Shown piece by piece: positions 13,637 to 40,904 of a stretch of 64,000 bases of DNA. The position numbers were made by a program, and so were the translations under genes. Source of the stretch: Chloroflexota bacterium (lineage in GTDB: Bacteria; Chloroflexota; UBA11872; VXOZ01); contig CATQHC010000007.1 of assembly GCA_958295775.1 (NCBI GenBank), positions 1,061 through 65,060 on the forward strand, in the 5' to 3' direction. Below the pieces are notes generated by a model. It was given only the letters and a program-made list of their open reading frames with translations, did no database searches and was not told the DNA's origin. Each line of letters starts with the position of its first letter. Positions within the stretch are counted from its first letter, which is position 1.

Positions 13637-13852
13637 ATGAGTTGGGAATCTGCTACAACCGTCGTTGTAACAGGTGTTGCAGTTGGCGGATTCATAATGC
13701 TACAGATTCGTAGCCTTGACGGGCGCATGTCCAGTCTTGAGAGCCGTGTATCTGGCATAGAGCAGCGGCTGGCTCGCATCGAAGGGTTACTAGAAGGCTA
13801 CTTTGCAAGCAACAAAGGGAGTGAATCTAATACCCCGCCCACGAGCGACTAG
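13637..13852 (+). CDS. Small hypothetical protein: one TM plus heptad coiled coil
   Basis: RBS GAGGAG, 71 aa, LDGRMSSLESRVSGIEQRLARIEGLL, followed by a terminator. Confidence 0.65.
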   Translation: MSWESATTVVVTGVAVGGFIMLQIRSLDGRMSSLESRVSGIEQRLARIEGLLEGYFASNKGSESNTPPTSD

Positions 13853-13913
13853 TCAAAGAATGAATTCAAGCGGCGGGACTTCAATCCGGCCTGCAGACAA
13901 ATATAAGAAAAAT

Positions 13914-13948
13914 AAAAGCCCGCTACGCTTCCTGTAGCGGGCTTTTTT
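13914..13948. terminator. Bidirectional intrinsic terminator
   Basis: AAAAGCCCGCTAC-GCTTCCT-GTAGCGGGCTTTTTT between convergent genes. Confidence 0.85.
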
Positions 13949-13971
13949 GGTTCCAAGTGTGGGAGGAAAGT

Positions 13972-14436
13972 CTAGCCTGCCTTCAGGCTCTCCGCATAGT
14001 CCGCGATGAACGCGTCTACCTTGCCGCCCTTCAAGTCGCCGGGGCGGAAGTCGCGTAACGCTTGTACCGCGTCTTGCGGCGAATAATCTTCGTACTTGAC
14101 CAAGTACCCTGCCAGGACCGTACCGGCCCCGCCGAATCCCGAGCCTCAGTGAATGAGGGCTTTGTCATCCCGCAGGGCTGCCGCGTGCAGGGACTCCACG
14201 GCGGCATCGAGTGTCGCCACGTCGCTGCTCACGCCACTAAAATTGTCGACCGTCATGCCAAGACGTTCGATGGTCTCCGTATCGGGTGTCTTGCTCGATG
14301 CGGCGACGATGTGGGAAATGCCCTGCGCTGCCACCGCGCTTAGCTCTTCTTCGGTATCCGGAAAGCCGGAGGCGGCGAACTTACTCTCCCCAAACCACTT
14401 GAAAATACGTGGCAGGGTTTGCGCATTCTCAGTCAT
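13972..14436 (-). CDS. Dual-specificity phosphatase (PTP/DSP)-fold protein with in-frame TGA at the catalytic Cys; candidate selenoprotein (U97), 154 aa
   Basis: RBS AAGGAAG then ATG at 14436. Reads ...DKALIH-TGA-GSGFGGAGTVLAGYLVKYEDYSPQDAVQALRDFRPGDLKGGKVDAFIADYAESLKAG-TAG. Aligns with VHCxxGxGRTGTxLAxYL...AIxxxRxxRPG. SECIS-like hairpin follows the TGA. Confidence 0.8.
14113..14131 (-). promoter_or_regulatory. Putative bacterial SECIS upper stem-loop
   Basis: mRNA CGGGGCCG-GUA-CGGUCCUG at +15..+33 after the UGA. 8-bp stem with two G-U pairs; loop G at +23 and U at +24. Confidence 0.65.
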
Positions 14437-14602
14437 AGCTCTCTTCCTTTCAGTGCAGCTCTTCATCAAGACTGCGTTTTTGTTGAGAGCCGCGACACGT
14501 ACCCTCTCAGTGCCGTAGCCCATCGTGGCAGACGGTTGAACACTTATCTCGCCCAATAAGGTCGCTAGCTGTGCGCTTCTCTCGTGCTCCGACCGATTCC
14601 GG

Positions 14603-38422: not shown

Positions 38423-40189
38423 CTACCCCAAGATCGTGCCCCGCATCTCCATGGGCTGCGTCATTAGCCAGGCGCCCGCAAAGAACAGCATGACGATGAG
38501 TACCGCCCACGGCAAGAGTGCGCGGGCAGCGCGGGCTGCGGTGCGCTGTTGCTCTTTCGCGATGCGGTAGCCAACGGTAAGGGAAACCAGCATGCCAAGC
38601 TCCAGCAGCAGGAGTTCCAGCGGCGCCAGCCAGGACTCCGGCACGATGGCAGCCAACTCCCAGCGTGGGTCGCCGAGTATCGGGATGCCAAAGTCGACGA
38701 GAAAGCTCTGCATGACGGGAATTACGGTCAAAGCGCCAATGAAGAAGTGAAATCCATAGTGCGCGAGCCACATGCCAAAGCCAATGGGTATAAGGGCAAA
38801 GCTGTAGCGCGTCACGGTAGCGCCCAGCGGCTCAGCGCCGGCGACGAGAGCGCGGCTAGCCCAGCCAGCAGACGTCACCAGTACAAAGGGAACCGCCACA
38901 AGTCCCACCATGAAAACTACCCCCAGGACCAGCGGCTCATTGCGTACGCCAAGCATATTCGCGAGCCACTGCTCCAAGGCATAGACCGGCGCCACCATGC
39001 CGAACGCATTCACGAACGCCGCGAACACGAGCACAATCACTAGTGCAGCGACGTCCGTCCGTTTCACTAGCGTGCCCACGCCGGAGCGCCACGTATCGAG
39101 GCGGCGGAATTCGCTGGTGGGAGCGCGCAGCCGGATGCCGACGTTGTCATACGGACAGGCTTGAATGCAGTCCAGGCAGAACGTGCAGTCCATGTTCCCT
39201 TTCTTGCTCTCTTGGAAGAGCCAGAGTTCACAACCGGACTGCACGAGTTGAAGACCGGCCGGCGCAGCTACCTGTCGCATTGCTTGGGAGGGAGTATCGT
39301 CGGCAGGTGGTACAACCGCTTTGCCGGGCTCATCCGGGTCGACGGGATTCCGGCTTGCGCCGGAATGACCGCGTTCAATTTGACTGCCCAGAATCTCTCC
39401 AGAATCGGCGCGTGTAATGCGCTCCGAGATGAAAGAATCCCCTCTCCCTTGAGGGAGAGGGCCAGGGTGAGGGTGATCTTCCACAGTCAAGCCGGACGCC
39501 ATCGTATTGGGAGAGTCTTGCACTGACTCGACTTCGCGAAAACTACGGTCATTCTGCGGCTTTGGCGCTTGGCTATACCGCCCCTTGATGCAGTCTTTCG
39601 TGGTGCACGAGCCGCAAAGTGCAGGCTGGCGCACTTTGATCTCCAGCGGCGACACCATGCTATGAACGAAGTGGAATTGTCCGATGGGACAGACGTATTT
39701 GCAGAAGGCCGCACCCCTGAAGATGCCGTCTATGGCAAAGGCGGCGGCAAAGTAAGTAAGCGCCACCCAAGCTGTGAGCCATGGGCTCGCCCAGAGATCG
39801 AACGCTTCGTACGCCCAGAAGAAGACAAGAAGCACACCAATCGCCAGCCACTTGCTGCGCATGACTTTCGGCCAAGGACGGTTTGCGGGGAAGAGCTTCT
39901 TGGCAAGACGGCGTGGCAGCATGAAGGGGCAGGCCATGCAAAAGAGGTTGCCGGCAATGAGCAGAGCCAGCACCACGAGACCCCGCCAATGCACCCAAGG
40001 CAGCACACCCGCGACGTTCTTCGGCGCGAGCTGGGGTCCCCAGAACCCGTCATAGAGGATGAGCGCCGACACAGCCAGCAGGACTGCCTGCATGGAGGTA
40101 CGGGCATGCTTCCAGCGCAGAAAGCCCCCGACTACGGGAACGTTGAGCAGATCGCGTTGCCGCGACTGCTGGGTCCGCAGCGCCGCCAC
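38423..40189 (-). CDS. Membrane 4Fe-4S binding (polyferredoxin, NosR/NapH/FixG-like) protein with a ~115-aa repeat-containing insertion
   Basis: GNLFCMACP, FCKYVCPIG, CGSCTTKDC, DCTFCLDCIQACP, many TMs. GTG start 2 bp after the upstream stop. Confidence 0.85.
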   Translation of the reverse strand: MAALRTQQSRQRDLLNVPVVGGFLRWKHARTSMQAVLLAVSALILYDGFWGPQLAPKNVAGVLPWVHWRGLVVLALLIAGNLFCMACPFMLPRRLAKKLFPANRPWPKVMRSKWLAIGVLLVFFWAYEAFDLWASPWLTAWVALTYFAAAFAIDGIFRGAAFCKYVCPIGQFHFVHSMVSPLEIKVRQPALCGSCTTKDCIKGRYSQAPKPQNDRSFREVESVQDSPNTMASGLTVEDHPHPGPLPQGRGDSFISERITRADSGEILGSQIERGHSGASRNPVDPDEPGKAVVPPADDTPSQAMRQVAAPAGLQLVQSGCELWLFQESKKGNMDCTFCLDCIQACPYDNVGIRLRAPTSEFRRLDTWRSGVGTLVKRTDVAALVIVLVFAAFVNAFGMVAPVYALEQWLANMLGVRNEPLVLGVVFMVGLVAVPFVLVTSAGWASRALVAGAEPLGATVTRYSFALIPIGFGMWLAHYGFHFFIGALTVIPVMQSFLVDFGIPILGDPRWELAAIVPESWLAPLELLLLELGMLVSLTVGYRIAKEQQRTAARAARALLPWAVLIVMLFFAGAWLMTQPMEMRGTILG

Positions 40190-40191
40190 GC

Positions 40192-40668
40192 CTACTTGCC
40201 TTCCTGCGACGAATCTTTGGACTTCATGTCCATCTTCATCTCGCCCTGCACACCTTTGAGGTCGACGCGTTGCTGCACCGTTGTGCCATCGGCAAGCGTC
40301 GCGCGCACGATGATGACCCAATCGCCGCCCATCGTAAATCTGAAGTCCCGGGTGGCATATTTGCCCGCACCCAGAGCCTCAGTCGCCACGATGACCGGTT
40401 GCATACCGGCATGGGTCATGGTGCCTTCCACTTCGATGGTCGCGCCCTCGATCGGATTGCCGTCTACGTCGCGAATTTCCAAGGTGAGTACGGCGTCACC
40501 CACTGTCGCCGGGTCCGGCGCCACGGAAATAATAGTTACGTCGAGTGCGCCGCTCTCTTGACCGCGCGGGCCGCACGCAATGAGGGCAAGCACACCCAGC
40601 AGCGCAAACACGACGGCAATTGTTGGGCACGCGCGAACTTCAACTACATCATGGATGGAACGATTCAC
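40192..40668 (-). CDS. YtkA/FixH-like lipoprotein
   Basis: GGAGG RBS, GTG start, lipobox LIAC, IEVEGTMTHAGMQP, FTMGGDWVIIV. Confidence 0.8.
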   Translation of the reverse strand: MNRSIHDVVEVRACPTIAVVFALLGVLALIACGPRGQESGALDVTIISVAPDPATVGDAVLTLEIRDVDGNPIEGATIEVEGTMTHAGMQPVIVATEALGAGKYATRDFRFTMGGDWVIIVRATLADGTTVQQRVDLKGVQGEMKMDMKSKDSSQEGK

Positions 40669-40904
40669 GACACCTCCCTCTTCATGGTAGCAATGAACCG
40701 TCGTGGCTGCGCGACGTGCGTACAAAGGCAGCATTCGCGTTGCCATCACGCTCAACCGTCACGGGGCGCCGCGGCGAGTCCGGCACAGCAAATCAACTGC
40801 GCCGCGCCGCTTAGGGCTTGGCGAATGCCTCAACGCGTCGCATAAAAGGCAAAGGGCCGACGCGTTGCATGGTGGGAATGCCAGCCGCGCGCAAGGACTC
40901 TCAG

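Follow-up and report, generated by a model that had tools for sequence, protein, structure and literature searches.

A predicted selenoprotein with a DUSP23-type phosphatase fold, divided by gene callers at a conserved in-frame UGA in Chloroflexota

In a 64,000-nucleotide stretch of a Chloroflexota bacterium (contig CATQHC010000007.1 of assembly GCA_958295775.1, positions 1,061 to 65,060; hereafter the window) we analyzed a short minus-strand gene whose open reading frame (ORF) meets TGA at codon 97 and continues behind it. Our comparison of this gene with its relatives suggests that the UGA is very probably recoded as selenocysteine (Sec) by SelB and tRNA-Sec bound to an RNA hairpin downstream, giving a protein of 154 residues and, estimated from that length, about 16 kDa. 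The product has the fold shared by protein tyrosine phosphatases (PTP) and dual-specificity phosphatases (DSP), and the recoded codon falls on the position of their catalytic nucleophile. A preliminary description of the window, made from its letters, had proposed a hidden selenoprotein at this site, and the layout that it gave was found in the sequence: the ORF halts at the TGA (14146-14148), 57 sense codons lie beyond it up to the TAG at 13972, and a strong intrinsic terminator follows (Table 1). The terminator scan listed no minus-strand terminator-like site between TGA and TAG, and the genes called in public records of relatives begin at the same start codon.

The TGA is conserved wherever the gene was found. 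Among 5.8 billion proteins, a word-indexed search found 26 relatives with 75-96% identity. Of these, 25 were exactly 96 residues long and one 114; public gene callers therefore end these genes at the same TGA. At the DNA level, four complete or near-complete Chloroflexota metagenome-assembled genome (MAG) chromosomes (OZ242272.1, OZ244798.1, OZ219802.1, OZ244145.1) carry TGA at codon 97 with a conserved open frame behind it, as do 14 further loci. Four much more distant clusters, likewise truncated (97-99 residues, 39-49% identity), came from running HMMER exhaustively over 1.84 billion cluster representatives. In their DNA, drawn from sources that include a TARA ocean scaffold and metagenome contigs of JGI, the TGA is again followed by an open frame, of 57-59 codons, with the motif H-U-GSG[FYL]GGAGT. 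Altogether, TGA was present in 17 of 17 distinct nucleotide sequences from five lineages, down to 39% protein identity; these sequences stem from independent assemblies and technologies, one of them (L026) from a metagenome scan. No sequence in this clade has the cysteine codon TGY at position 97, where the wider homologues have Cys. The preliminary description had considered that close relatives might all carry TGC or TGT, as expected after a recent nonsense mutation, and all of them carry TGA.

The frame behind the TGA is under coding constraint. Within the Chloroflexota clade, the ratio of nonsynonymous to synonymous substitution rates (dN/dS) was 0.115 upstream of the TGA and 0.092 downstream, or 0.064 when the hairpin codons were left out, showing that purifying selection on the downstream frame is at least as strong as on the upstream one. 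Orthologues keep the same frame and length. A genome-wide reassignment of TGA was also considered and is excluded, because TGA is a normal stop that ends 18 of the 46 long ORFs in the window, and several orthologues close their own extended frame with it.

Some observations concern individual copies of the gene. In L014 (1-2706) and L018 (1-2235 and 4144-5107), low-coverage long-read contigs (3x-11x), the callers divide both ileS and glyS into several genes, most likely because of indel errors, yet the selenoprotein gene has the same TGA there. In L006 (1250-1690) a short masked or N stretch (XXXX) lies in the C-terminal half and the copy looks nine codons shorter, which we take as a scaffold gap and not as a real deletion. 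Additionally, a sponge metatranscriptome run (X14) holds a 255-nucleotide contig of a 91%-identical relative, matching 14145-14399 and ending one base beyond the TGA. This break is probably the end of a unitig and not of an RNA. The contig is a weak indication that the gene family is transcribed, as DNA carry-over is possible.

The second line of evidence is the RNA itself. The preliminary description had noted a hairpin resembling a selenocysteine insertion sequence (SECIS) behind the UGA, CGGGGCCG-GUA-CGGUCCUG, and this element was confirmed at 14131..14113, with its loop 22 nucleotides from the UGA. In the codons +6 to +12 (GGG GCC GGT ACG GTC CTG GCA) the mean synonymous entropy was 0.18 bit, compared with 1.13 bit at comparable four- and six-fold sites upstream and further downstream, where the flanking four-fold sites are saturated. 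The same contrast appeared when codons were compared between pairs of lineages with only about 40% residue identity, with Fisher p values down to 2.6e-5: the lowest belongs to the window and locus L024, which have identical codons at six of six positions inside the hairpin stretch and at three of 33 outside. Because synonymous variation is nearly absent in codons +6 to +12, nucleotide-level selection falls exactly on the hairpin. In RNAalifold, each of the 14 distinct nucleotide rows has the 8-bp helix, and 98% of the cells are paired. In the 7-bp core of the stem the sole change was G-U to G-C, in three lineages, and the closing pair (33-51) was C-G in ten rows, U-G in two and unpaired in two.

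The position of the hairpin and the G-U at the start of its apical loop fit bacterial SECIS elements (bSECIS model). The arrangement resembles that of Escherichia coli fdhF type genes, in which the UGA is likewise followed by a stem-loop inside the coding sequence (CDS) with an apical G-U, homologues with Cys exist and automated annotation truncates the gene. The G23/U24 of fdhF are numbered from the U of the UGA; in that numbering the loop of the window would presumably be G26/U27, one codon further out, and its stem is short, perfect and GC-rich with a loop of three nucleotides. A smaller hairpin, CCUCA-UUCAC-UGAGG, holds the UGA in its 3' arm. Changes in it were one-sided only (A-U to G-U) and the same repeat was flagged on the plus strand; this element may keep release factor 2 away from the UGA, or it may be the basal part of the SECIS.

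The read-through product completes a phosphatase fold, as had been proposed. Pfam PTP-SAK (PF22784) matched residues 9-133 (E 1.9e-14, 54.4 bits, cutoff 27) and DSPc (PF00782) was also detected (E 5.9e-9, 36.3 bits, cutoff 33.5), both matches running across the TGA. By sequence, the nearest solved structures were 25xa, a bacterial protein of the DSP family, and 2img and 4erc of human DUSP23/VHZ. An AlphaFold2 model (predicted local distance difference test, pLDDT, 89.6; predicted template modelling score, pTM, 0.84) matched 2img and 4erc in Foldseek with template modelling (TM) scores of 0.82-0.85. In the model, Sec97 is the last residue of strand 92-97 and lies ahead of helix 103-116, where the nucleophile is classically found, and in the alignment the UGA falls in the column of the invariant Cys of the HCxxGxGRTGT motif of the Cys homologues. 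With DUSP23/VHZ and 25xa the protein shares a size of about 150 residues, the fold, an N-terminal F-x-W motif, the register of the H-[C/U]-x-x-G-x-G-x-x-G-T loop, the YLVKY helix and the RxxRPG motif. As an aside, the nearest Cys homologues include proteins (P0028, P0029, P0030 and P0034) with two to four tandem DUSP23-like domains, the first repeat of P0028 being without the HC motif; these proteins look eukaryotic by composition, are unrelated to the Sec clade and show that the domain is prone to duplication.

The active site has been altered around the nucleophile. DUSP23/VHZ has a Cys codon where our gene has UGA. In the phosphate-binding loop (P-loop), the sequence is VHC-xxG-xG-R-T-G-T in the Cys forms and HU-GSG-xG-G-A-G-T in the Sec forms, so that the Arg and the following Thr or Ser of DUSP23/VHZ are replaced by Gly103 and Ala104. 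The preliminary description had placed the TGA at the nucleophile of an HC(X5)R motif; its alignment with the catalytic Cys was borne out, and the motif as such was not, the R position being Gly. Gly103 was found in all 17 Sec forms and all six TGA-truncated 50%-identity clusters are without the Arg, whereas Arg occupied 151 of 151 true P-loops in the best 148 Cys homologues. The general-acid loop, which in Cys forms has the pattern ...P-x-x-D-[FYL]-x-x-P, carries a three-residue deletion in the Sec forms, and the residue nearest the general-acid site varies within the clade (D, E, G, V, Y or T). Furthermore, the Sec forms have FKWF where the Cys forms have FSWV, RPGDL where DUSP23/VHZ has RPGSIE, and clade-invariant Lys13, Lys114, Arg131 and Asp134. 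In a maximum-likelihood tree of 113 sequences, 12 of them Sec forms, the latter made up one long-branched clade (support 100/99) nested among the Cys forms and set apart from the DUSP23/VHZ-type proteins by a stem of 1.05 changes per site. The Sec clade therefore arose once, and the changes from Cys to Sec and from Arg to Gly coincided at that origin with the deletion in the loop. When the most distant member was used as the query, the word-indexed search returned only the member itself and no Cys-type relative lacking the Arg; its lineage is rare.

Whether the RNA element could have dictated these replacements was examined by inspection. A SECIS forcing Arg to Gly was rejected, as AGG (Arg) would form an A-U pair where GGG forms G-U; an RNA origin of Thr to Ala was likewise rejected, since ACC (Thr) would pair like GCC.

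With both the P-loop Arg and the general-acid Asp missing, the protein is probably not a phosphatase. The proposal that it is a Sec-containing member of the PTP/DSP superfamily was thus upheld for the fold and the conserved TGA, and a phosphatase activity was not supported. The main functional rival is that the Sec protein has remained a phosphatase, in which the selenolate, being more nucleophilic, together with another basic residue, for example the candidate Lys13 of the FKWF motif, would offset the missing Arg and Asp. The intact fold and P-loop backbone and the four clade-invariant residues would suit such an enzyme. Nevertheless, we regard it as unlikely: the Arg is kept in every P-loop counted among the best Cys homologues, the general-acid loop is three residues short with a variable Asp position, and the long stem branch suggests a functional change. 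To our knowledge, the P-loop Arg is essential in all PTPs that have been studied.

The composition of the site points instead to a neofunctionalized enzyme that would not be a phosphomonoesterase. Sec97 would stand at the start of the P-loop of the DUSP23/VHZ-type fold, ahead of helix 103-116, and its selenolate, held in a glycine-rich anion hole, would attack something other than a phosphomonoester, because the Arg that clamps the phosphate and the general acid are missing yet the glycine-rich amide cradle and the preceding His are intact. The protein of the window contains no cysteine and therefore has no resolving thiol of its own. A redox or chalcogen-transfer chemistry could then proceed through a Se-O, Se-S or Se-Se adduct resolved by an external thiol or by thioredoxin, a role that we put forward with low confidence. 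In its fullest form, the proposal is that this is the first natural selenoprotein of the PTP superfamily, in which Cys to Sec together with loss of Arg and Asp turned a phosphatase scaffold into a single-selenolate enzyme, either a thiol-dependent peroxidase or reductase or a carrier of sulfur or selenium, in sponge-associated and marine bacteria; as a whole we consider it a tentative possibility. Two points count against the chemistry: its basis is confined to residues that are present or missing, and no conserved gene neighbour pointing to a pathway was found among the loci compared. In the rhodanese/Cdc25 pair, the make-up of the loop separates chalcogen transfer from phosphatase activity. 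In this regard, rhodanese-like Sec proteins (forms 1-5, with UxxG or UxxS; PMC13188914) also have Sec at the start of a glycine-rich anion-binding loop, and U-G-S-G of the window corresponds to UxxG; the rhodanese fold is unrelated to the PTP fold and no sequence similarity was detected; the functional analogy is a tentative one.

Returning to the decoding, several results speak against selenocysteine insertion. Folding of the window sequence alone gave an energy that was unremarkable at this GC content when compared with shuffled sequences (z = -0.32), so that the hairpin is supported by conservation at synonymous sites, a comparative and not a thermodynamic kind of evidence. There were no compensatory double changes among the 14 rows, because the stem is otherwise invariant. 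Thus, of the conserved, covarying hairpin that the preliminary description expected in homologues, the conservation held, with the helix kept in every row and its synonymous sites frozen, and the covariation did not. Within the 64-kb window, ARAGORN and Rfam detected no tRNA-Sec, and no SelA, SelB or SelD was found, ten ORFs of fitting size being other proteins or without a Pfam match. Nor was a second selenoprotein gene visible in the window: four other unoccupied TGA extensions of at least 21 codons look non-coding (three of 20-22 codons were left out).

These absences from the window would also fit a reading in which the UGA is read through with Cys, Trp or Gly by a near-cognate or suppressor tRNA and the hairpin acts as a general stimulator of read-through, since the comparative data show that the codon is translated and not which residue is inserted. 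We consider such a reading improbable. The UGA stands at the catalytic nucleophile, where exchange of Cys and Sec is the rule; the position of the hairpin and its G-U loop are as in bacterial SECIS elements; and TGY, to be expected if Cys were acceptable, occurs in no sequence of the clade. In addition, Dehalococcoidia, which belong to the same phylum, are among the most selenoprotein-rich bacteria in BSepDB, which lists Dehalococcoidia MAGs with 46-49 selenoprotein genes (PMC13326102). All these data favour Sec as the residue inserted at UGA97, by a SelB-type SECIS hairpin that would act from within the CDS, 15-33 nucleotides downstream of the codon and with G-U in its apical loop.

Termination at the UGA would leave a 96-residue fragment and perhaps a separate C-terminal peptide of 43 residues started at TTG 14103. 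Gene callers output exactly such fragments, and the expectation that automated annotation would truncate the gene proved right, the public calls being unnamed pieces of 96 and 41 or 42 residues. Still, termination has very little probability in our view. Between the UGA and the TTG lie 15 residues (GSGFGGAGTVLAGYL) that make up the P-loop and begin the main helix, and they hardly vary even in relatives at 39% identity; the Pfam and structure matches cross the UGA, and the internal TTG (codon +15) is CTG or CTC in some relatives. We know of no case in which half a PTP fold is stable. Lastly, the reading that a recent nonsense mutation has turned the gene into a pseudogene, or that the TGA is an assembly error, for which the bare presence of a stop codon speaks and nothing more, is refuted by the occurrence of the TGA in 17 distinct sequences from independent assemblies, by the dN/dS of 0.06-0.09 past the stop and by identical Logan contigs from two runs, which match 13900..14500 with zero differences.

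Table 1. Positions in the window of the read-through gene and of the elements in and around it.
Feature	Position	Strand	Remark
Full CDS of the 154-residue read-through protein	13972..14436	minus	includes TAG 13974..13972
ATG start, codon 1	14436..14434	minus	
Shine-Dalgarno-like AGGAAG	14443..14448	minus	6 nt upstream of the ATG; read from the sequence
In-frame TGA, codon 97, predicted to be read as Sec	14146..14148	minus	in alignment, at the catalytic Cys of DUSP23-like phosphatases
Codons 96-108 with the modified P-loop H-U-G-S-G-F-G-G-A-G-T	14113..14151	minus	Gly103 at the Arg site, Ala104 at the Ser/Thr site
SECIS-like hairpin, 8-bp stem	14113..14131	minus	+15..+33 after the UGA; -11.1 kcal/mol
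Apical loop GUA of the SECIS-like hairpin	14123..14121	minus	G at +23 and U at +24 after the UGA
Small hairpin CCUCA-UUCAC-UGAGG, 5 bp	14144..14158	minus	UGA in the 3' arm; 4 pairs kept in 12-14 of 14 rows
Intrinsic terminator	13914..13946	minus	about 25 nt past the TAG; 13-bp stem (7 G-C pairs), then a T-run

As to novelty, the preliminary description did not know this as a recognized selenoprotein family, and the inventories that we compared agree. A 2026 review (Recent advances in exploring the composition and evolution of the prokaryotic selenoproteome; PMC13188914) lists 119 families and subfamilies in its Table 1, on which our statement of absence from the literature rests, and none of these entries is a phosphatase, PTP or DSP. 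There was also no mention of a PTP/DSP selenoprotein family in the BSepDB paper (111 families, PMC13326102), in a 2022 review (PMC9312934) or in the deep-Sep paper (PMC12013277), and the Global Ocean Sampling (GOS) paper (PMC2398784) contains only a PP2C domain fused to Prx, an unrelated fold. No NCBIfam model exists for the family, the only match being a sub-threshold one to NF009025. We therefore describe it as a predicted new selenoprotein family, that is, UGA/SECIS decoding on a known fold and not a categorically new system, which would add the PTP/DSP fold to the roughly 119 families catalogued. Public pipelines systematically split this family into 'hypothetical' fragments of 96 and 42 residues. 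The invariant nucleotide signature CAYTGAGGNTC...GGGGCCGGTACGG is a simple finder for further members, and the DNA pattern for the family is CAYTGAGGNTCNGGNNNNGGNGGGGCCGGTACGG. For phosphatase enzymology, the family could serve as a natural experiment in which the identity of the nucleophile is linked to a change of reaction, in a small and directly testable protein.

Regarding the surroundings of the gene, in Chloroflexota it stands alone, with its own Shine-Dalgarno sequence and terminator, between ileS on one side and a small ORF, glyS and recO on the other. In other lineages its neighbours are an acetyltransferase and DAO oxidases, or a GFO/IDH/MocA oxidoreductase. Elsewhere in the window, a 632-codon ORF on the minus strand (38423-40321) had no Pfam match at E <= 1e-5, and ORFs of 330 codons (39569-40561) and 191 codons (40270-40845) lie on the strand opposite to it. 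The small ORF between glyS and the selenoprotein gene (13637-13852, plus strand) has 71 codons, starts with a hydrophobic N-terminus and contains a heptad-like stretch, LESRVSGIEQRLARIEGLLEG. At the same site, the relatives L009, L011, L013 and L016 have a called gene of 71-91 residues, and the neighbour gene in L010 gave a weak CCDC90-like Pfam match; the ORF may encode a conserved small membrane or coiled-coil protein.

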